Below are positions 14,044 through 63,578 of a stretch of 64,000 nucleotides of DNA, piece by piece. How positions within the stretch are numbered: position 1 is the stretch's first letter; the number at the start of each line of letters is the position of its first letter. The position numbers were made by a program, and so were the translations under genes. The notes under the pieces are model-generated. The model saw nothing but the letters and a program-made list of their open reading frames with translations. It made no database searches and was not told the origin of the DNA. The stretch is from an uncultured Hormoscilla sp. (GTDB lineage: Bacteria > Cyanobacteriota > Cyanobacteriia > Cyanobacteriales > Desertifilaceae), in assembly GCA_963921275.4 (NCBI GenBank), contig OZ001293.3:5472001-5536000 (forward strand), in the 5' to 3' direction.

Positions 14044-14190
14044 GTTTGTAGTAAGCACTTTAGTGCTTCCGAGGTTTGTAGTAAGCACTAAAGTGCTGCC
14101 CCCGTTTGTAGTAAGCACTTTAGTGCTGCCGAGGTTTGTAGTAAGCACTTTAGTGCTGCCCCCGTTTGTAGTAAGCACTTTAGTGCTTCC
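14044..14190. repeat. Five tandem 30-bp units with internal palindrome AGCAC-TTTA-GTGCT
   Basis: GTTTGTAGTAAGCACTTTAGTGCT plus 6 nt; single copy near 38778, related copy near 63548. Confidence 0.9.
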
Positions 14191-14217
14191 CCGCCTCCCG
14201 GGTTTGGGGTAGGATCT

Positions 14218-14599
14218 TCATTGTTCATATATTTCCAGGGGCAAGTCATCTGGATCCTTAAAGAAAGTAAACCGCTTGCCTGTAATTTCATCAAGTCTGA
14301 TTTCTTCTACGGCCACTCCCTGAGATTTTAAGTGCTCAACTGTGGCATCGAGATTTTCGACGGCAAAAGCTAAATGTCTGAGTCCACAAGCTTCTGGGTT
14401 ATTTGTGGGGCGGGTTGGGAAATGAAAACAGTTCAATTTGGTCGCCTGGGCCCACGCGCAGATCTAACTTGTAAGAGTTGCGCTCTTTTCTGAAGGTTTC
14501 TTGGATAATGGAGAAACCGAGAACTTCCACATAGAAGTGTTTTGATTTTTCATAGTTAGAGCAGATGATGGCGACATGATGGATGCCTGTAATTTTCAT
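14218..14599 (-). pseudogene. VOC/glyoxalase family protein, frameshifted near 14410
   Basis: IHHVAIICSNYEKSKHFY..SYKLDL..IELFSFP, then PEACGLRHLAF..FFKDPDDLPLEIYE in another frame. Confidence 0.85.
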
Positions 14600-14605
14600 G
14601 GGTCT

Positions 14606-15476
14606 GTGCGATTCGTTCTAGCCTAACGTGGTCAAACACGGAACGCTAGCCCGGTTTCATTAGCCGGGAACTCTGACCGCATGGGGGTTAAATTCCCCTC
14701 CCCCCAGGTACGGGGGTGATACCGGTCCTCGGTGCTACGAAGCGACATCATCGTGGTGCTAAGCGAGGACTCAAATGTAGGATAACTGGCAGCCTAAGCC
14801 GGTGACGCCGCTAGGAAAGATATCCAAGGTTAGAGCAGGCAAACATGTGCAAGCCTCGTTATAAGGAACCAGCGAAATAAGGCTATATGCGCTGGCCTAA
14901 AAAGGAAATGGTAGCTAGTATTAGTTTTAGACTCTGGCTAATATAGTACTCAAATAGCTCCCGGGGTATAGTGTGGACCTAAAGGTATCGCGAAATGTTG
15001 TTAGGGAACGAAGTAACCTCTCGTGTGCTGTCCATCAGGACAAGTTAGATGTTAAGCGCAAGCCACGGGGGGAGGGATGGCCCAAGAAGCGAATGCCCGG
15101 GGTAATTCCTGGGATAACATCTACAGTAATGTAGATGATGCTGGGTAGCCAGCGCTGACGTGGGTCGGTGATACTAGGAAGCTGCTGGAATGAGTAATCC
15201 TAAAAAGCCACGGAACTAATCCGAAACGCAAGTGGAGGATAAGGTATGGATAACTGGTAAAACTGACTTGAAAATGGTGATACTAACGGTTATCAGAACA
15301 ACCACTCGCTAAACCAGGAAAGGGAAGAAAAGACAGGCGGCAAGGGCTAACGGAAGTAATTCCTATTAAGTCTACCTATGAAAAGGGCCTAGTACCCAGT
15401 AGCCGGATGCGGTGAAAATCGCAAGTCCGGTTCCTCAAGGGAGGGTCGGGAAGCGATTCCCGGCTCGACCCCATCC
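14606..15476 (+). mobile_element. ORF-less group II intron, copy 2 (871 nt)
   Basis: GTGCGATTCG start, DV/DVI; identity with copy 1 ends after CCCCATCC; EBS1 AGACUC pairs with exon GGGUCU. Confidence 0.92.
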
Positions 15477-16383: not shown

Positions 16384-16977
16384 TTACTTTCGACTATTCC
16401 TTGCCTCCATGTTGAAGAAGTGGATGATGATTGGCAGATTACTGTAAACGATCGTTAGCTCATTACCAATAACTTCCCTACCCCTTAGCTTGCATCGCGC
16501 CCAGATGTCGGTCGCGGCACCCGTTCGCGTAGGCGTAGCCGTGTGCGCGCAGCGCAATCGCTCCGGGGCATGATTATAATGTACAGGCAAAAACATCTTT
16601 AGGGATGCAAGCGGGCGGGGCGATCGATATGATATCATAACCAATAACTTCTCTACCGCAATGGGAGAGCCCTCGGCATCTTCTAACCGCCTCCCTTGAC
16701 GTTTTAACTCTGCATGTATTTCTGATGCTTTTTCCAAAACCTCTATCTCGTTTAACACCGGTAAAACTTGATATTTTCTGCAAAAGAACTCGAAGTCCAA
16801 TAGCTTTCTCGTCGCATTGGTCGCCGGCAATCCTCTTTTTATCTCATAGTATGTAATGCCACTGATAAACATTGACATACCTTGCCGCCGCACTTGCTCC
16901 ATTTTTTGGTCGATCTTCTCATTCTTCCTTAAAATCGCCGAGACGATATTTGTATCCAACAGATAACTCTTACTCAT
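16384..16977 (-). pseudogene. VapC-type PIN toxin, C-terminus replaced by unrelated sequence
   Basis: YLLDTNIVS..SGITYYEIKRG..RLEDA, then similarity is lost. Confidence 0.7.
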
Positions 16978-23154: not shown

Positions 23155-24126
23155 ATGGGTACGATCTGGGAACTGGATTTTCATTCCCGTCCAATCTTAG
23201 ACGATAACAATAAAAAAATCTGGGAAGTTCTGCTGTGCGAGAGTCCTTTGGATATCCAGCAGGAATCACAGTTTCGGTACTCTCAGTATTGTTCTAGTAA
23301 AGAGGTGAATTCAGTGAAGCTGCGCCAAGCCCTGGAAGAGGCGATCGCCCAAGCAGGAAAAGCCCCCAGCCAAATTCGCTTTTTTCGGCGTCAGATGAAA
23401 AATATGATAACGAAAGCCTGTCAGGAATTAGATATTCAGGCGGTGCCGTCGCGGCGGACGATAGCCCTCAACCAGTTGCTGGAAGAACGAAGCCAGGAAG
23501 TGTATCCCCAGGAGACTGGATACGACCCCCAGGCTGTACCATCAGCATCCGTGCGCTATCAACCCCAAACGCCTCAACGGCTACCAGACGCCCTGATGCC
23601 CAAGCAATGGGCCTTTGTCAGCTTAACAGCGGGGGATCTTCAGGAAATGTCGGAGTGGGAGATTTCCTTTGGCGAAGCCTTCCCGATCCCCCAGAAGGTG
23701 ACACCAGAAACTCCTATCCCGGGAGTGATTTTATTCTCGCCTCGGGCCCTGCCGATGGCGGGTTGGATGTCAGGTATAGAACTGGCGTTTTTGAAGTTTA
23801 TCCCCTTCGATGCACTCGGGGCGCGCTACTCGCACTACCCCTTGATGCCTGAGGGGTTTTTGCGTCTGCGCAGCAGCTGCGCAGCTGCTAGCATCCCGAA
23901 GGCATCGAAGCGCATCGAGTCTCCAGCAAAATTAATCTTGGAAACGGGGGCTAGTGAAAGCTGGATTTTAGCGAACCTGAAGACTAAGCAACTCATCACA
24001 GAAGCAGCAGGATTTGAATCAGCAAAACAGGAAGCGCAGCAAATCCATTTTTTAGCTGTCCAGTCGGATCCGCAGTCCCAATCCTTTGCCGGATTTTGGC
24101 TGTTACAAGAACTGCATCTAGCATAA
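23155..24126 (+). CDS. Tab2/Atab2 (DUF1092) RNA-binding protein with 36-aa in-frame insert
   Basis: WELDFHSRPILD..KKIWE, IRFFRRQM, HFLAVQ..FAGFWLL. Confidence 0.92.
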   Translation: MGTIWELDFHSRPILDDNNKKIWEVLLCESPLDIQQESQFRYSQYCSSKEVNSVKLRQALEEAIAQAGKAPSQIRFFRRQMKNMITKACQELDIQAVPSRRTIALNQLLEERSQEVYPQETGYDPQAVPSASVRYQPQTPQRLPDALMPKQWAFVSLTAGDLQEMSEWEISFGEAFPIPQKVTPETPIPGVILFSPRALPMAGWMSGIELAFLKFIPFDALGARYSHYPLMPEGFLRLRSSCAAASIPKASKRIESPAKLILETGASESWILANLKTKQLITEAAGFESAKQEAQQIHFLAVQSDPQSQSFAGFWLLQELHLA

Positions 24127-25696: not shown

Positions 25697-26630
25697 ATGT
25701 TTAGCCTGAGCCGCTTTCTATCGCCCAAACGCCGCCTCGAAAAGGCAAGTACCTCCCGTGCTGGCACGAACGTAGAAGCTTGCATCATTGGTTTGGTATC
25801 GGGATGCAGCGCAGTTTTACTTCATATTGGCATCGGGCTATTAGGACCAGTCCGCATACAGGTATCTAACTACCTGCCAGTTTGGTTCGTTTTACCAGTT
25901 ATCGGCATCAGTTTTGGCTTCATTGCTGGCTGGTTGATAGAGCAATTTGCACCGGAAACTCGGGGTAGCGGCGTTGCCCAAGTTAAGTCAGCCCTGACTG
26001 GTGGCTCCATCGTGCTGAACTGGCGCGTGGCCCTAGTCAAATTCTCGAGTACCCTGCGATCTGGTCCTAGTCAAATGGGCCAACTGTGTCCCCCGGGAGC
26101 GCTACTCGCACTACCCGGGGGACACAGCCTCCCAGGCCAGAGGCGGGGCTAGCGAGCAGAATAAATCGCTCAATCTGCCCAATCCCTTGTCGAAAAATCC
26201 CGCTCCCAATTATTGTCCCGTCCCCCTCTTTAAACGCTGGCTATTGCCGATGGCGGGTGGTCCCCATAGCGCTGCGGCGGTGCGACTCCTCCCCGCCCTT
26301 GTCAAAGGACAGTTTTCTCCAGAAATCCGCTTGTGCCAGGTTTTTGACCCAGAACTGGACAAGATCGATCGCCACGTGATCGATCGGGCGAGCAAGTTTC
26401 TCAAACCGAAACTGAAGAGTGGTTTTGTCGCTGCCACAGTCCTGCGATCGCCTTCTGTTCCCGAAGCCATAATTGACCAAGCGTCTAATGATAACACCGA
26501 TGTGGTAATGATGGGAGCTAGCCGCGAGGGTTTGCTACAGCAGGCCATTAAGGGCAATATCCCAGAGGCGATCGCCTCTGGCTGTAATTGTACTGTGATT
26601 CTGGTCCGCAGCAGCAATCCTAATAGTTGA
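25697..26630 (+). pseudogene. ClC chloride channel N-terminus plus USP C-terminus, middle deleted
   Basis: APETRGSGVAQVK (ClC) then WLLPMAGGP..MGASREGLLQQAIKGNIPEAIA (USP). Confidence 0.75.
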
Positions 26631-29777: not shown

Positions 29778-31592
29778 TTACTCCTTTACCACACGCATTG
29801 AATGTGGGTGGGAGAAGTCTAAGTACTCACCATTTTGCGCTTTCACATGTTTTAGATCTTCGTTAGGGACGGTGCCTGTAAAGGTAGCAAGACGGTTGTA
29901 GGATAAATTATCGTAATCAGACAGCATGACCCCCGTACCTTCAGATGCTTGCACATAGATTTGTTTATCGTAGATAAACCCTGGAAGTGAGTATGCTGAA
30001 CGCTTACCTACCGGAAGACAGTACTGGTTTTTCACGTCTAAGAGAACAATACAGCCTAGTGGCTCGCTTGATTCAACTACTCGCATCGAATGCGGATGAG
30101 AGAAATCCAGAACCTCACCATTTTGCGCTTTCACCTCTTTTAGCTCATCGTTAGAGACGTAGCCTGTAAAGGTGGCAAGACGGTTGTAAGACAAATTGTC
30201 ATAATCAGACAGCATGACCCCCACACCTTGAGGAGCGTTCACATAGACGGGTTTATTGTAAATAAACTCTGGAAGTGAGTATCCTGAACGTTTACCTACC
30301 GGAAGACAGTACTCATCTTGCGTGTCTAAGCTAACAATACAGCCTAGTGGCTCGCTTGATTCAACTACTCGCATCGAATGCGGATGGGAGAAATCCAGAA
30401 CCTCACCATTTTGCGCTTTCACTTCTTTTAGCTCATCGTTAGAGACGTAGCCTGTAAAGGTGGCAAGACGGTTGTAAGACAAATTGTCATAATCAGACAG
30501 CATGACCCCCACACCTTGAGGAGCGTTCACATAGACGGGTTTATCGTAAATAAACTCTGGAAGTGAGTATGGTGAACGTTCGCCTACCGGAAGACAATAC
30601 TCTTGTTTTGTCTCGACATTCACTATACAACCTTGCGCTTCTTCCACCGCGTGGGCAGGAGTCATAAAGAACAGGTGCGACTCGTTCTAGCCTAATGTAG
30701 TAAATACAGAACGCTAGCCTAGGAAACTAGGAACTCTGGTGATCATGGGGGTTAAATTCCCCTCCTCCAGGTACAGGAGTGACCGCGTGAGGTGCTGCGG
30801 AGCCACATCGCCGTGGTGCTAAGCGAGGACTTAAATGTAGGATAGCTGGCAGCCTCAGCCAGCAACGCCGCGCTTGTTAGAGGCTCATGGTGAGAACAAG
30901 CGAATCTCTGTAAGTATCGTCATCTGAGACCAGCTCTAAGGCTGATTACGCTGGCCCAAAATGGAAAAGTAGTTCGCGTGTCAATGTTTTGTTTTCATTG
31001 ACAATGTGCCCTCAACAACTACCGGTATATAGTCGAGACCTAAAAGCCTCGTGAAATGATACCAGGGAACGAAGTAACCCCATGTGTGCTGTCCATATGG
31101 ACCAGTCAGATGTAAAGCGTAAGCCACGTGTGGGAAAGATGGCCCAAGAAGCAAATGCCTGGGCGGTGTCTTCCGCATGCTCTTGTCCTGAAGGACAAGA
31201 GCATGCGGAAGACGCCGGGTAATGCCTAGGATAAGCAGACATGGGTCGGTGATAGTAGGAAGTCTTAGGTAAAAGTAGCTCTAAACGTCATCAGCCCATC
31301 ATGTAAATGATGAGGAATGAATTACTGGTAAAACGGACATGATAATGGTGATACTAAAGGTTATCCGGCAGCGCCACTCACCAACCAGGAAAGGAGCCAA
31401 ATCGCATAGGACAAGGAACAACGAGAGTAATCCCTAGTAATTCTGCCAATGATAAGGACCTACTACCCAGTAGCCGTGTGCGGTGAAAGTCGCATGCACG
31501 GTTCCGAAAGGGAGGGTTGGAAAGTGATTTCCAGCTCGACCCCTAATAGTTGTAGCAATTACTGACAAACAGAAAAGCAAAATGCGCTTCAT
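29778..31592 (-). pseudogene. Secreted protein with three StcE C-terminal (X409-like) modules, split by an antisense intron (parts 31592-31548 and 30674-29778)
   Basis: Three repeats GCIV..YCLPVG.RS.YSLP..MLSDYDNLSYNRL..AQNG..LDFSHPHSMRVV; intron removal gives signal peptide MKRILLFCLSVIATT|LFFMTPAHA. Confidence 0.82.
30675..31547 (+). mobile_element. ORF-less group II intron, copy 3 (873 nt including a 54-nt palindromic insert)
   Basis: GTGCGACTCG start; DV AGCCGTGTGCGGTGAAAGTCGCATGCACGGTT; boundaries fixed by in-frame rejoining of host gene; EBS1 UUGUUU pairs GAACAG. Confidence 0.92.
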
Positions 31593-33189: not shown

Positions 33190-34813
<1,624 letters not shown>

Positions 34814-49972: not shown

Positions 49973-51313
49973 ATGGCTATGCTCGATACTGCTGCGCACC
50001 CAGCGCAGCGCTTACGGACTCTGAATGCCCTATCTCCGGAAACCTGGCCCTTTAGCCTAGAGTGGTTGCCCGCTGATGCTTATCTGGTAGGCGGTGCGGT
50101 GCGGGATGCCTTGCTGTCAAGTCGATGCCTGAGGGGTTTTTGCGTCAGCGCAGCGCAGCCGCGGCTGCATGCATCCCGAAGGCATCGAAGACGGGAGTAC
50201 CTGGATCTGGATTTTGTCATGCCCGCTGATGCTGTGGAAACGGCCAAACAGATCGCCAGTCACTATCAAGCTGGGTTTGTGGTCCTGGATGCGGACAGGC
50301 AAATTGCTAGAGTGGTGTTCTCATGCCTAACAATTGACTTTGCCCAGCAGGAGGGGGAAACCCTGGCCGCTGACTTGGGACGCCGAGACTTTACTATAAA
50401 TGCGATCGCCTACCATCTACAAAGGGGGGAACTGGTAGATCCCCTGGGAGGTTGTGCGGACTTGGAAGCAAAAATTATCCGTATGGTATCGCGCCAAAAC
50501 CTTCAAGATGACCCATTACGATTATTACGAGCATACCGCCAAGCTGCCCAGTTGGGTTTTGTCATCGAACCGGAAACGAGTTCTACTATTGGGGAACTCG
50601 CGCCCCATTTGTCAAGGGTAGCAGCGGAACGGGTACGAGTCGAGGTGGAGTTTATGCTGGATAATGCTTGTGGCACGATCGAATTGCAAGCTGCTTTTGA
50701 AAATAGTTTACTCGCCCCTTGGTTTCCGAGTGCTACAGCAGCGGGGTTGGCAAGAGTCGCAGCAGTCGATCAGGTCTTTGTCTTGTTGGCAGAATGTTGG
50801 CCAGACCTAGGAGTAAAACTGCAAGCATCCCTGTTGGAGACGCAAAAAACTTCTTGGTTGAGTATTGCTAAATTGGCGAGTCTGTTAAACCCCGATCCTC
50901 AGAAAGCTGAAGCCGAGTTATTACACTTAAAATACTCTCGTGTGGGATTGCGGGCAACCCTTGCGACCCTGAAGAGTTTACCCCAACTGCAAGCAGGCCC
51001 AATGTCTTTGCGAGAACAATATTTCTTCTTTCGGGAAGTCGGCGAGGCGTTTCCTGCTGCTTGCGTACTGACGGTGGCCAGTGGAGTGGACAAACAGGCG
51101 ATCGCCCCAATGATCGATCGCTATCTAGATCCGCAAGATCCTGCTGCTCATCCTACGGCCCTCGTGACGGGAACAGATTTGATGTCAGCACTCAATTTAC
51201 CGAGGGGAAGACAAATTGGCAAGTTACTGACAGAAATTCAGATCGCCCAGGTTGAGGGAAAGGTCTCGACAGCAGCAGAAACTTTAGAATTCGCCGCCCA
51301 ACTACTGAATTAA
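49973..51313 (+). CDS. CCA tRNA nucleotidyltransferase with two in-frame inserts
   Basis: LVGGAVRD, DLDF, RRDFTINA, DDPLRLLR. Confidence 0.93.
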   Translation: MAMLDTAAHPAQRLRTLNALSPETWPFSLEWLPADAYLVGGAVRDALLSSRCLRGFCVSAAQPRLHASRRHRRREYLDLDFVMPADAVETAKQIASHYQAGFVVLDADRQIARVVFSCLTIDFAQQEGETLAADLGRRDFTINAIAYHLQRGELVDPLGGCADLEAKIIRMVSRQNLQDDPLRLLRAYRQAAQLGFVIEPETSSTIGELAPHLSRVAAERVRVEVEFMLDNACGTIELQAAFENSLLAPWFPSATAAGLARVAAVDQVFVLLAECWPDLGVKLQASLLETQKTSWLSIAKLASLLNPDPQKAEAELLHLKYSRVGLRATLATLKSLPQLQAGPMSLREQYFFFREVGEAFPAACVLTVASGVDKQAIAPMIDRYLDPQDPAAHPTALVTGTDLMSALNLPRGRQIGKLLTEIQIAQVEGKVSTAAETLEFAAQLLN

Positions 51314-54980: not shown

Positions 54981-55085
54981 ACGGAATAGTCGTGCTCAGG
55001 CACGGAATAGTCGTGCTCAGGCACGGAATAGTCGTGCTCAGGCACGGAATAGTCGTGCTCAGGCACGGAATAGTCGTGCTCAGGC
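54981..55085. repeat. Five perfect 21-bp tandem repeats ACGGAATAGTCGTGCTCAGGC
   Basis: Direct reading. Confidence 0.92.
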
Positions 55086-55299
55086 GTCGTGTAGGGCCGG
55101 TAGATATAAAAGACCGCTTTTCAGCAAGTGATTCATTTTGTATACGAATCGTAGACGAAGAAAGCCAGCGTCGGAGGAAACCTGCTGGGGTATGAGGTTG
55201 CGAAATATGGGTTAAATTGAGAGACACCCAACTTTGACAGTATAGTGGCAAAAAAAATTATGATATGATAATTTCCGGAGTGATGGACCGAGATGTATG

Positions 55300-56020: not shown

Positions 56021-56821
56021 TGTTACCAATGTTGCCAGTAACCAACACTTGAGTTATAATAGACAAAGGTGCGACTCGTTCCGGCGTAAGTCGGAAATAA
56101 GCAATTCTCTCATTATGAGGAACCAAAAAATGAAGCATAATACCAATGCCAACACCATGGTAGTAGTGGATGCCTCCCTAGAAAACTACCAGCAGCTTAT
56201 AGACGGTATCCGGCCTGGGGCCAAATCTTTCCTCTTAGACCCTCAGTCCGATGGCATCGAACAGATCGGCGAACTTCTCCGACAGCATCAAGAAACAGAG
56301 GTTCTGCACCTACTTTCCCACGGCAGCCCTGGCTGTCTGTATCTGGGGAACTCCCAACTGAGTTTAGATACTCTAGGAGATTACGCCTCTACCCTGCAGA
56401 AGTGGAAGGTAAAACAACTCCTACTCTACGGCTGTAACGTCGCCGCCGGAGATGCAGGAGAGGAGTTGATGACTAAGCTACAGGCCCTAACCGGGGCATC
56501 CCTCGCCGCCTCTACTACCCGGACAGGGACAGCAGCCCGGGGCGGAAATTGGAAGTTAGAGTGGCGAACTCCGGGGATGAAAACTCCCTTAGCATTGTCC
56601 GCAGAAGCTCAGATGGCCTATGGGGGCATATTGATCTCCCAGCAGGAGTATCAGGCCTTAAGGGCTCTATACCAAGGCACCAATGGGGCTTCTTGGAGGA
56701 ACAATACAGGCTGGGTTAGCTGGAATTTCAGCAGCTCAACTCCCCCCGATGCTTCTGTTGTTAATGGTTGGCGTGGAGTGACGGTAACTAACGACAGGGT
56801 GACGGGACTCCAGCTGTTCTC

Positions 56822-57782
56822 CAACCAACTGACTGGCAGCATCCCGACGGAGTTAGGGAATCTTTCCAATTTGGAGGATCTCCGGCTGAACTTCAACCAA
56901 CTGACTGGCAGCATCCCGACAGAGTTAGGGAATCTTTCCAATTTGATTCGTCTCCAGCTGAACGAAAACCAACTGACTGGCAGCATCCCGACGGAGTTAG
57001 GGAATCTTTCCAATTTGAATCGTCTCTTGCTGTACTCCAACCAACTGACTGGCAGCATCCCGACAGAGTTAGGGAATCTTTCCAATTTGAATCGTCTCCG
57101 GCTGGACTCCAATCAACTGACTGGCAGCATCCCGACAGAGTTAGGGAATCTTTCCAATTTGGTATCTCTCGAGCTGGACTCCAACCAACTGACTGGCAGC
57201 ATCCCGACAGAGTTAGGGAATCTTTCCAATTTGGTATCTCTCGAGCTGGACTTCAACCAACTGACTGGCAGCATCCCGACGGAGTTAGGGAATCTTTCCA
57301 ATTTGGTATCTCTCGAGCTGGACTTCAACCAACTGACTGGCAGCATCCCGACGGAGTTAGGGAATCTTTCCATTTTGACATCTCTCTGGCTGAGCTCCAA
57401 CCAACTGACTGGCAGCATCCCGACGGAGTTAGGGAATCTTTCCAATTTGAGATTTCTCTGGCTGCACTCCAACCAACTGACTGGCAGCATCCCGACGGAG
57501 TTAGGGAATCTTTCCAATTTGAGATTTCTCTGGCTGCACTCCAACCAACTGACTGGCAGCATCCCGACGGAGTTAGGGAATCTTTCCAATTTGACATCTC
57601 TCTTGCTGTACTCCAACCAACTGACTGGCAGCATCCCGACAGAGTTAGGGAATCTTTCCAATTTGATTCGTCTCCGGCTGCACTCCAACCAACTGACTGG
57701 CAGCATCCCGACGGAGTTAGGGAATCTTTCCAATTTGACATCTCTCTTGCTGTACTCCAACCAACTGACTGGCAGCATCCCC
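56822..57782 (+). repeat. 72-bp LRR tandem array (13 full 24-aa units)
   Basis: Near-invariant AACCAACTGACTGGCAGCATCCCGACRGAGTTAGGGAATCTTTCCA framework. Confidence 0.95.
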
Positions 57783-58084
57783 CAAGAGGTCTTAGATTTG
57801 AGGGCTAGCAAGCAATTGGAAAACCCCCCTTATGTAAAAACCCAGATTCCCGACGTCTCGTTCTTGCTAGGTAATAACCTCAACATAGACATTAGCGACA
57901 ACTTCGGCGACATCAATAACAACATCAACAACTACACAGCTACCGGTTTACCAGGGGGCGTAACGATCAACAGTCGGGGAGTTATCAGCGGTACCCCTAC
58001 TACCGCAGACACCTTTACCGTGACGGTAACCGCCATCGACCAAGCGGGATCTGAAGTGACAGATATCTTTGACATTATTATAGA

Positions 58085-61000
58085 GAACTCCCCTCCTACC
58101 GACCTAGTCCTTAGCAACAGCAGCATTGATTCTAACTCCCCTGATAATGCAGTCGTAGGGACTTTCTCAACTACCGATCCTGACATTGGAATTGGAGATA
58201 CCTTTACCTACCAGTTAGTCACAGGCGACGGTGCCGATGATAACGACGCCTTCACCATAGAAGGGAACTCACGGGAACAGTTACTCAGAGGCCTTGACTA
58301 TTAGCGTCAACGATGTTCCCGAACCTTCGACCTCCATAGTCCTTAGCAACAGCAGCATTGATTCTAACTCCGCATCGGGTGCAGTCGTAGGGACTTTCTC
58401 AACTACCGATCCTGACATTGGAGATACCTTTACCTACCAGTTAGTCACAGGCGAGGGTGCCGATGATAACGCCGCCTTCACCATAGAAGGGAACTCACTG
58501 CAAATTAACAGTTCCCCTGACTTTGAGACCCAGTCCAGTTACAGCATCCGCGTCCAGACTACTGACTCGACCGGGAACAGTTACTCAGAGGCCTTGACTA
58601 TTAGCGTCAACGATGTTCCCTCACCTCCGACCTCCATAGTCCTTAGCAGCAGCAGCATTGATGAAAACTCCTCTGATAATGCAGTCGTAGGGACTTTCTC
58701 AACTACCGATCCTGACGCTGACGATACCTTTACCTATCAGTTAGTCACAGGCGAGGGTGCCGATGATAACGCCGCCTTCACCATAGAAGAGAACTCACTG
58801 CAAATTAACAGTTCCCCTGACTTTGGGACCCAGTCCAGTTACAGCATCCGCGTCCAGACTACTGATGCTGGTGGCTTAGTTACTCAGAAGCCTTGACTAT
58901 TAGCGTCAACGATGTTCCCTCACCTCCGACCTCCATAGTCCTTAGCAGCAGCAGCATTGATGAAAACTCCACATCGGGTGCAGTCGTAGGGACTTTCTCA
59001 ACTACCGATCCTGACTCTTCCGATCCCTTTACTTACCAGTTAGTCTCAGGCGAGGCTGCCGATAATAACGGAGACTTCACCATAGTAGGGAACTCACTGC
59101 AAATTAACAGTTCCCCTGACTTTGAGACCCAGTCCAGTTACAGCATCCGCGTCCAGACTACTGACTCGACCGGGAACAGTTACTCAGAGGCCTTGACTAT
59201 TAGCGTCAACGATATTCCCGAACCTCCGACCTCCATAGTCCTTAGCAGCAGCAGCATTGATAAAAACTCCCCTGATAATGCAGTCGTAGGGACTTTCTCA
59301 ACTACCGATCCTGACGCTGACGATACCTTTACCTACCAGTTAGTCACAGGCGAGGGTGCCGATGATAACGCCGCCTTCACCATAGAAGGGAACTCACTGC
59401 AAATTAACAGTTCCCCTGACTTTGAGACCCAGTCCAGTTACAGCATCCGCGTCCAGACTACTGATGCTGGTGGGCTTAGTTACTCAGAAGCCTTGACTAT
59501 TAGCGTCAACAATGTCAACGAACCTCCGACCTCCATAGTCCTTAGCAGCAGCAGCATTGATTCTAACTCCCCTGATAATGCAGTCGTAGGGACTTTCTCA
59601 ACTACCGATCCTGACTCTTCCGATCCCTTTACCTACCAGTTAGTCACAGGCGACGGTGCCGATGATAACGCCGCCTTCACCATAGAAGGGAACTCACTGC
59701 AAATTAACAGTTCCCCTGACTTTGAGACCCAGTCCAGTTACAGCATCCGCGTCCAGACTACTGACTCGACCGGGAACAGTTACTCAGAGGCCTTGACTAT
59801 TAGCGTCAACGATATTCCCGAACCTTCGACCTCCATAGTCCTTAGCAGCAGCAGCATTGATAAAAACTCCCCTGATAATGCAGTCGTAGGGACTTTCTCA
59901 ACTATCGATCCTGACTCTTCCGATACCTTTACCTACCAGTTAGTCATAGGCGACGGTGCCGATGATAACGCCGCCTTCACCATAGAAGGGAACTCACTGC
60001 AAATTAACAGTTCCCCTGACTTTGAGACCCAGTCCAGTTACAGCATCCGCGTCCAGACTACTGACTCTGCTAGTAATAGTTTTGAGGAGGTCTTGACTAT
60101 TAATGTTATTGATGAAGCAGAGAATTCTTCTCCTACCTCCATAGTCCTTAGCAACAATAGCATCAACGAAAACTCTCCATTGGGTGCAGTCGTAGGGACT
60201 TTGTCTACTAGCGATCCCGACGAGGGAGATAGCTTTACCTACATGCTTGTCTCCGGCAACAATGCCTTTACTATAGTAGGGGACCAACTGCTAACTAACA
60301 GTTCTTTGGACTTTGAGACTCAGTCCAGTTACAGCCTCCGCGTCCAGACTACTGACTCTGCTAGTAATAGTTTTGAGGAGGTCTTGACTATTAATGTTAT
60401 TGATGAAGCAGAGAATTATTCTCCTACTGATATAATTCTTAGCAGCAGCATCAATATCAACGAAAACTCCCCAGCCAATACTGTCGTGGGGACTTTCGGA
60501 ACTACTGACCCCGATAATGGAGATACCTTTACCTACCAGTTAATCTCCGGCTTTGGTGCCGATGATAACGCTGCCTTCACCATAGTAGGGAACCAACTGC
60601 GAATTAACAGTTCCCCTGACTTTGAGACTCAGTCGAGTTACAGCCTCCGCGTCCAGACTACTGACTCGACTGGGAACAGTTACTCGGAGGTCTTGATTAT
60701 TAACGTCAACGATGTCGGCGAGTCTCCTACCGACCTAGTCCTTAGTAGCAGCAGCATCAATGAAGATTCCCTATTGGGTGCAGTTGTAGGGACTTTCGGA
60801 ACTACTGACCCCGATAATGGAGATACCTTTACTTACCAGTTAATCTCGGGCTTTGGTGATGATGATAACGCTGCTTTCATCATAGTGGGGGACCAACTGC
60901 GAATTAACAGTTCTCCGGATTTTGAGACTCAGGAGATTTACAGGATATTCGTTCGGACTACCGACTCGACTGGGAACAGTTACTCGGAGGCTTTGATTAT

Positions 61001-61340
61001 TAATGTGAACAATGTTGCTGAGTCTCCTACTGATATAGTTCTTAGTAATGGCAGCATTAATTCTAATTCCCGTGTGGGTGCGATCGTGGGGACTTTCGGA
61101 ACTAGCGATCCGGACGGGGGAAATACTTTTACCTACGGGTTAATCTCGGGTTTTGGTGACGATGATAACGCTGCTTTCACTATAGTAGGGGACCAACTGC
61201 TAATTAATAGTTCTCCGGCTTTGGAGATGAGGTCGAGTTACAGTATCCGCGTTCAGACTATTGACGTTACTGGGGCCAGTTACTCGGAGGCTTTGATTAT
61301 TAATGTGAACAATGTTGCCGAGTCTCCTACTGACCTTAAC
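58085..61340 (+). repeat. ~300-bp cadherin-coding tandem repeats
   Basis: Repeated GTCCTTAGCA..GGGACTTT..GACTTTGAGAC.. Confidence 0.92.
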
Positions 61341-61628
61341 TTCAGCAATACTCGTCAACCCCTAACTTTCAACCCCCAACCCCTAACTTTATCACTCTTT
61401 GAGAAGGAGGAGGAGGACACTCTGATCGGCCGGGAGGGAAGAGATCGCGTCTACGGAAACCATGGAAGCGATCGTCTCTACGAAGGATCAGAGGCCAATA
61501 TTTTTGTTCTGAAGTCGGACATGATGGGTACTATCATGGACTTTGAAGATTATACGCACGGGGCTGGACGCGATCGGGCTGGACGCGATTTTTCCGGAAC
61601 GGTAGATTTGGCGATCGTCTCTCAGGGC

Positions 61629-62629: not shown

Positions 62630-63578
62630 GGCATGAGGGAATGTATGAAGACTATCGATCGATCGCTTGCTGGAGATCCCCTCCAAACCCCCCTTAGTAG
62701 ATGCTGTGGGCGAATTACCAATTCATGGCGTTCATCAGGGGGGAGGGAGGGGAAAGTTAAGCGCCATCAGCATTTGAGGCTGATTTTGGGTCATACCTTT
62801 CAGTTAATTATCCCACAGTATCTTAGTAAGGGGGGCTTTGAGAGTTCTCACTCTCGTTTCCTGGCTCGGCCAGGAAACGACGCTCTAGAGGATCTGTCTC
62901 CTGAGCGCGATATATTCTGGAGACAGAATATATTTGGTCCGATCCTGTTCTACTGATTATACCCTATTGCACAATCTTTTCATAGGAATATCGCCATGTC
63001 AAGCAGAGGTCCGGTGAATTTCAGACATAATAAGGGTTGAGCGCGATTTACCAGAGATCGCACTAATTTTAGAACTGCTATATTTTTTTCTATATTTTTC
63101 GCGGTAACGACTACCACGATCGCATCAGTCCCTTTAATCTGAGCCAACCCTGTTTCTGATCGCTTATATGTATTCTGCGCTACAGAAAATATCCTGATTC
63201 GGTGCTAAATTAACCTATAGTCTAGGGAACAAGTGCCTGACCGAATATTCTCATGGGTAAGCCCCTCATCGGACAAAGTGCGATCGCCCCCTATTCCGAG
63301 ACAGGCAATATTCTTGGACTGCGGGGGGCGAGGGTCAAACAACCTACAGTATTATGACTAATCATCTATGTCTCCTGTGTGCCGTATCCCTTGCGGGAGC
63401 GTAGTGTGCAGCCATGTACCCTGGGACAAGAGCTCTGGCAGAGACATCGAACGGACTTTATATTACATCTGGAAAGCAAAGATATCGCCTTCTGGTGATG
63501 CCTACTTGACTATCTCTGATTTTTCCGGAACGGTAGCAGGGCTTCTTAAGGACTAAAGTCCTTACTACGAACCTATCT

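Follow-up and report, generated by a model that had tools for sequence, protein, structure and literature searches.

The window, a stretch of 64,000 nucleotides of DNA from a genome referred to here as G000, carries a Tab2/Atab2-family gene, Tab2 being an RNA-binding protein, with an in-frame insert made of two hairpin repeats. The features of the locus, together with two related repeat copies elsewhere in the window, are the following.

23155..24126, plus strand: Tab2/Atab2-family gene of 323 aa with PF06485 and PF20429; the closest insert-free homologues have 286 aa
23806..23916, plus strand: whole insert, 111 nt at CCC^GAA; empty sites in the congeners G002 to G004 and skipped in a contig of run X14
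23806..23843, plus strand: 5′ part of module A, 38 of 45 nt, with TT overhang, stem arm and conserved loop
23837..23864, plus strand: terminator-like hairpin and T run at the A/B junction, a consensus match only
23844..23909, minus strand: module B, a 66-nt hairpin repeat within the 3′ arm of A
23866..23889, minus strand: core of B, 24 nt, GC-rich and palindromic, boundary uncertain by 1-2 nt
23910..23916, plus strand: last 7 nt of module A, whose stem is closed by the target G at 23917; compare intact 45-nt copies
26084..26128, plus strand: A-type 45-nt copy with different, fully paired arms; site empty in G004
50124..50189, minus strand: second B copy, 66 nt long and lying in frame within a CCA-type nucleotidyltransferase gene (49973-51313), with a different 24-nt core

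Membership of the gene in the Tab2/Atab2 family is given by both Pfam domains, which score above the cut-off. The extent of the insert was determined by DNA alignment with four congeners. In G002, G003 and G004 the site is empty (ATC CCC^GAA) and the protein across it reads FIPE(S/P)P, and because of these empty sites the length was set at 111 nt (37 codons) and not at the 108 nt and 36 residues proposed by an earlier sequence-only reading; deletion of 108 nt would leave FIPFESP, with an extra Phe. The boundary is ambiguous by a single C, so that the insert could equally be shifted one base to the left, and no target duplication is present at the site beyond this C. The same empty sites speak against the duplicated TCGA that had been taken as the bounds: the first TCGA is the element's own 5′ end, while the second consists of the element's last two bases and the GA of the target. 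That the insert is in frame, strongly folding and repeat-derived was borne out, with folding z-scores of -3.74 as DNA and -4.57 as RNA and none of 200 shuffles folding equally well. In the fold prediction the whole insert forms one closed stem with both ends adjacent. The Tab2 gene was found in all 31 genomes searched, and the orthologues were checked for the segment, which was absent from 29 of 29 other loci and from 72 of 72 aligned homologues.

Both junctions are covered by overlapping contigs of the short-read runs X1 and X2, which show zero differing letters, and no skipping joint across the insert was present in the contigs of X1, X2 and X4. An assembly artefact was thereby ruled out, with the qualification that the runs X1 to X4 belong to one study, are possibly the assembly's own samples, and include no single contig that spans the whole stretch. 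Runs with small shares were left out of the comparison of read contigs. A contig of the RNA run X14 skips exactly 111 nt; because it is about 8% divergent and belongs to a relative, the skip was assigned to another strain's empty allele, and a reading as splicing was ruled out.

Two hairpin repeats and their family

A search of the genome with the insert returned two separate clouds of matches, at insert positions 1-36 and 38-104. The composite is a 45-nt hairpin repeat (A) holding a 66-nt hairpin repeat (B) on the opposite strand, with B placed at a C^G site in the 3′ arm of A and no duplication left by either. The Tab2 copy of A belongs to a subvariant with 16 copies within 3 mismatches, seven of them within one larger repeat; base 23843 is T in Tab2 and C in the 15 other copies. 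This subvariant also occurs as a clean 45-nt insertion at CCC^GAG relative to G004. The 40 matches of B comprise 23 of a 42-nt form, 13 of a 66-nt form, which is the 42-nt form plus the 24-nt core, and four of other lengths. Two clean 66-nt B insertions were found against empty sites (G000 versus G004), and related 24-nt cores stand free in long ORFs as four insertions in an earlier 2.4-Mb comparison set. The nested, multi-layered build first noticed from the letters thus holds, A, B and core each occurring elsewhere as separate clean insertions. The two similarities within the window that had been pointed out hold as well: the 18-mer at 26099-26116 is identical in its letters, and the segment shared with the CCA-type gene at a different centre is the part belonging to module B (about 50124-50189).

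The A+B composite occurs a single time in G000 and is absent from the fetched congener loci, and A alone stays open in the Tab2 reading phase. Because A, B and core insert separately elsewhere and the composite occurs once, local assembly at Tab2 in two in-frame steps, +15 and then +22 codons, is likely and is the simplest history.

The loop motif of A was found in five of 31 genomes, which are all five of the genus (the Hormoscilla carriers), and in none of the 26 other relatives. It was counted 121 times in G000 and 23-59 times in the other four carriers, with 0 counts for the reversed control. In a species-wide scan (30 of 64 parts), Hormoscilla records made up 70 of 73 among the matches listed. 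A total of 332 loop matches was obtained in G000, 175 of them having 10 or more of the 14 stem pairs formed, and 42 of these 175 A units lie within long ORFs. Over 111 distinct arm pairs, collected by exact loop and with no pairing filter, the arms are 86% paired versus a mean of 62% and a maximum of 65% in 500 shuffles, a control which treats related copies as independent. A and B follow a common plan, namely a long variable stem, an asymmetric inner loop, a 3-bp stem and a small loop, and stacked units reach at least 287 nt. An Rfam search with the insert gave no match, and no description of A/B-type repeats was found in the main-text portions of two publications from the Hormoscilla genome literature (PMC6520454, PMC7313196) or through a literature search on repeats in Hormoscilla genomes.

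Several other observations were made in the same genomes. The chloride-channel/Usp gene at window positions 25697-26630 is without about 1.8 kb found in G001 to G004 and is likely a pseudogene; the deletion lies near 26052-26063, some 20-30 nt upstream of the A-type copy at 26084-26128. Further tiny mobile units, many of them in frame in genes, occur in the window (61588-61602, 63519-63533, 16544-16556, 22472 and 49692) and genome-wide; they are a unit of 15 nt, SDR5-like units of 24 nt that insert at CGATCG-like sites, and hairpins of 48-54 nt. A 102-nt MITE-like element is present in identical copies at TA sites in G004 (L036, L060, L092, L096, L127 and L150), and G000 is without it. Tandem arrays with periods of 72, 300, 288, 30 and 21 nt lie at 56736-61421, 29788-30651, 14044-14193 and 54981-55106 of the window. 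One contig of the G000 assembly (C3, 31 kb) has 17.6% GC versus 47% for the genome and is probably foreign to the assembly.

Junction geometry and proposed route of insertion

G000 was compared with 140 regions, covering 2.8 Mb of about 6.9 Mb, of the congener G004 (about 93% identity); 495 clean single-gap events were kept, of which 39 belong to the A/B family, and 505 multi-gap events were dropped. A stem was called in 26 of the 39 family events and was not called in the other 13. A geometry with a 2-nt 5′ overhang and a stem closing on the first target base was seen in 19 of the 26, and seven did not fit it. The first target base is G in 13 of the 19 canonical events (p 8e-5) and another base in six; C or T usually precedes it. 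Pairing of the overhang with the second target base was counted by hand at eight of 13 empty sites (p 0.006). Of the 106 genomic A copies that stand free, 58 show this pairing versus 35 in shuffled ones, and farther out there is no excess. At Tab2 the target GAA is the exact complement of the first three bases of A. At the CCA-type gene the base beside the target G matches neither the empty allele of G004 nor that of the more distant G001, and the difference is of the kind that lengthens the stem.

The B insert of the CCA-type gene (50124-50189; loci L262, L263, L264 and L266) is present with different 24-nt cores in G000, G002 and G003 and absent from G004 and G001, though G004 is close to G002 and G003. 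Loss, allele exchange and repeated insertion are alternative origins of this pattern.

At slightly better than even odds, the repeats move as a single-stranded hairpin intermediate that is joined at Y^G with a splint of 1-3 nt. By this route a single-stranded copy would fold up as a long stem interrupted by an asymmetric inner loop; fold and loop would be the conserved features, and the sequence of the stem would be free. The 3′ end of the element would be joined to the target G, its first three bases would pair with the first one or two bases of the target as a short splint, and the joining would be done by something acting in trans. Copies that break a frame would likely be purged by selection, so that the copies surviving in genes would be multiples of three. 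The insertions themselves likely spread as selfish DNA. Points against this mechanism are the events given above without target G (6/19), off the geometry (7/26) or without a stem (13/39) and the lack of any mobilising gene beside the repeats, none having been found at the Y1 loci and among the neighbouring ORFs examined. A lagging-strand route might be expected to give a strand bias along the chromosome, and it also counts against the mechanism that no such replichore bias was seen (p 0.28; 93 of 171 repeats follow the local skew). The earlier description of the units as transposase-free stands as far as they are gene-less; it fails to the extent that a factor acting in trans is suggested by the fixed geometry of the junctions and by stems which vary yet remain paired.

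Host replication or repair enzymes are a tentative candidate for this factor, the group II intron reverse transcriptases, which are very abundant, a doubtful one and an HUH tyrosine nuclease an unlikely one, with any other factor less likely still. G000 has 93 reverse transcriptase matches, 442 matches of the group II intron 5′-end pattern and four IS110 matches. The heavy load of group II introns extends over the whole genome and comprises several families, each with its own upstream target consensus; in the window, group II intron loci lie at 450-1327, 14599-15476, 31014-31549 and 33612-34453. A motif cluster near intron genes was discarded as a chance match inside the reverse transcriptase frame. 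The reverse strand of the A loop and the group II intron 5′ end have six bases in common and nothing more, which was left as coincidence.

The alternative that survives best does without a dedicated enzyme: the repeats would spread by gene conversion, or by template switching at replication forks, with the help of 1-3 nt of microhomology, and fold-back repair would keep the arms complementary. We hold this to be possible, if doubtful. It agrees with the lack of a partner gene beside the repeats and with some inserts ending in bases complementary to the left flank, and the pairing of the arms could come from repair rather than from recognition. The mismatch near the junctions, raised to 0.10-0.12 in the first 5 nt versus about 0.06 farther out, would also fit, but control indels show similar values (0.06-0.14). 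A specific factor better accounts for the fixed polarity (the 2-nt overhang and the stem closing on the target G) and for the restriction to one genus, and recognition better accounts for a conserved asymmetric loop in freely varying stems.

REP/REPIN-like units moved on single-stranded DNA by an HUH tyrosine transposase (RAYT or IS200/IS605 TnpA) would be a further and less probable route. The chemistry of IS200/IS605 and TnpA-REP, as presented in parts of PMC8266576, is similar in its strand polarity, its base-pairing close to the junction and its absence of target duplication, and Y1 (HUH) genes occur in all five genomes of the genus. Yet the A/B loop motif was seen at none of the 20 Y1 loci examined (0/2 in G000, 0/18 in congeners), both Y1 matches of G000 being flanked by palindromes other than A/B. 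The conserved GTAG-type tetranucleotide before the stem is missing, the overhang varies, many copies are intragenic and the replichore bias is lacking. The palindromes beside the Y1 genes of G000 (contig C1, 241795-242139 and 1348544-1348780) are arranged in tandem and abundant genome-wide, and genes and palindromes together are probable RAYT/REP systems, the second gene being apparently frameshifted. No recurrent ORF was found next to the 581 merged motif loci, a set which includes chance matches.

To return to the hairpin intermediate, a bolder form of it can be sketched, to which we give little credence: a minimal element defined by shape, with a fixed loop, a free stem and target pairing of its 5′ end, would borrow an enzyme such as a group II reverse transcriptase and, through nesting, make peptide loops in housekeeping proteins grow codon block by codon block.

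Reading frame and the Tab2 protein

In ORFs of at least 170 codons, 27 of 28 family insertions keep the frame, versus 10 of 16 elsewhere. Among the 122 element-like indels (of 359 examined), selected by a filter which drops most of an AT-richer 15-nt family, multiples of three account for 71 of 74 in ORFs versus 27 of 48 elsewhere, and no stop occurs in the 71 frame-keeping ORF indels. The other indels keep the frame likewise (84/94 in ORFs, 69/124 off genes). The expected enrichment of multiples of three in coding sequences is thus present and is nothing special to the repeats; because the control indels behave alike, it points to selection on genes and not to a special mechanism. For the same reason, the off-gene excess of multiples of three was dropped as proof of an intrinsic codon size. 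Since the off-gene excess (27/48) equals that of the other indels (69/124), the off-gene class probably holds short or broken genes.

An AlphaFold model built with 73 sequences has a mean pLDDT of 90.8, with residues 227-244 below 50. When mapped on this predicted structure, the insert lies between the strands 210-216 and 258-264, in a beta-hairpin turn that spans 5-13 residues across the 72 homologues. The notion of a peptide loop added in frame is in keeping with this model: 37 residues, open in the frame of the gene, would be added to the predicted surface turn. Other inserts are found in the same protein, since G002 carries a different in-frame insert, 54 nt long and three codons from the G000 insertion site, as well as a 63-nt insert near residue 133, where G003 carries 18 nt. 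Independent Tab2 inserts are present in three of the five congeners, two of them in the same turn. It is likely that the G000 insert is tolerated because it would loop out of the predicted beta-hairpin turn, and its peptide is most likely a near-neutral passenger.

The gene next to Tab2 in G002 also carries a 54-nt insert. The Tab2 gene of G002 (L027) has a 1-base deletion in a C run near codon 127, which is a true break of the gene or else an error of long-read sequencing. A sequence search for solved structural relatives of Tab2 gave none that was credible. For part of the predicted fold a weak similarity to the RNase H-like cores of integrase and YeaZ was seen, with E about 3e-4 to 3e-3 and TM by query of 0.2-0.26.

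The possibility that the filled gene is dying, inactivated by the insert or by the junction terminator in a symbiont under relaxed selection, appears remote. Two points speak for it: a terminator-like hairpin followed by five T is formed at the A/B junction on the sense strand (-10.0 kcal/mol as is), and neighbouring genes are broken in G000 or in congeners. The hairpin would reach -12.8 kcal/mol with the A-consensus base at 23843; the actual T is this copy's sole deviation from the consensus of A and makes the hairpin 2.8 kcal/mol weaker. As four such sites occur in the region versus 1.8 expected, the signal is weak; the putative terminator could lower read-through. Against a dying gene stand the intact frame, dN/dS values of 0.19-0.23 versus the four congeners, and 12 synonymous versus 7 non-synonymous changes in the G000 lineage, counts that are blind to very recent loss. 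Judged by a dN/dS of about 0.2, Tab2 remains under purifying selection. Removal or bypass of the insert on the mRNA, intron-like or by a ribosomal hop and with the Tab2 protein unchanged, is highly improbable: the adjacent ends of the one closed stem and the abundance of group II introns in G000 would suit it, but the insert is open in frame like nearly all family insertions in ORFs, which is expected only if they are translated, its ends are unlike the genome's own intron ends, Rfam holds no match and the skip in X14 belongs to the divergent strain.

Altogether, we consider it probable (roughly 0.8) that the Tab2 insert is a 66-nt repeat inside a 45-nt repeat, that both belong to a genus-wide gene-less family, and that they arrived in two in-frame steps and are tolerated in a predicted turn of Tab2. 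The site is a clear record of two steps, and the independent inserts in three of the five congeners map where Tab2 tolerates extra sequence. Hundreds of insertions that are recent and datable are available in the genus, with sister genomes supplying the empty alleles; the rules of the junctions are thus directly legible, and a 45-nt substrate would serve for testing candidate enzymes.

Comparison with known small repeats

Small dispersed repeats (SDR1-8) were reportedly described by Elhai and coworkers in 2008 in Nostoc punctiforme and relatives. The SDRs of Nostoc are 21-27 nt long, have a conserved fold with compensatory changes and nest in each other. We know of no enzyme assigned to them, and to our knowledge the question of how SDRs and Rickettsia palindromic elements (RPEs) are mobilised has stood for some two decades. 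The likeness of the Tab2 insert to both groups, proposed from the letters alone, is upheld in that small gene-less nested hairpins are inserted in frame.

Nostoc SDRs are treated in sections of PMC5861425, PMC4390886, PMC3116915 and PMC2884548; insertion of SDR5 in HIP1 is given in parts of PMC4390886 and PMC5861425, and the relevant part of PMC5861425 states that no SDR-like repeats were found outside Nostocaceae. In common with them, A and B are tiny gene-less multicopy units of less than 100 nt (175 A-type units and 40 B matches in G000) which are present or absent at orthologous sites between close relatives, nest, and keep a paired-stem fold despite variation, the last with a control that treats related copies as independent. 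The 24-nt units of G000 that insert at CGATCG-like sites recall SDR5 in HIP1. The lengths differ, A having 45 nt, B 42 or 66 nt and stacks at least 287 nt, and only the 24-nt core fits 21-27 nt. Unlike in Nostoc, the stems vary almost freely, the target of A and B is Y^G rather than HIP1 and the host lies outside Nostocaceae; the likeness to SDR1-8 concerns build and behaviour.

RPEs are, according to parts of PMC10969869, elements of about 150 bp with a conserved peptide, found in frame in unrelated housekeeping genes. A and B resemble them as palindromic in-frame inserts in conserved genes with a recurring peptide, the peptide encoded by module B being almost identical between Tab2 and one gene of G004; they differ as nested modules of 45-66 nt that are read in several frames and on both strands and are cyanobacterial. 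REPs, in the portions of PMC3116915 and PMC8266576 that treat them, are extragenic, have a conserved tetranucleotide and flank their own transposase. Short hairpins, high copy number and presumed single-strand processing are shared by A/B with the REP/REPIN-RAYT systems, whereas A and B do not flank Y1 genes, have no conserved tetranucleotide and are intragenic in 42 of 175 A units. MITEs, as covered in parts of PMC10969869, are bounded by conserved terminal inverted repeats and show target duplications; A and B are likewise non-autonomous, have inverted ends and are able to fuse in frame, but their termini vary between copies and no target duplication was seen. Within this range of known systems, the Tab2 insert consists of two SDR-like mobile hairpins, one nested in the other, and its predicted effect on the protein is RPE-like.
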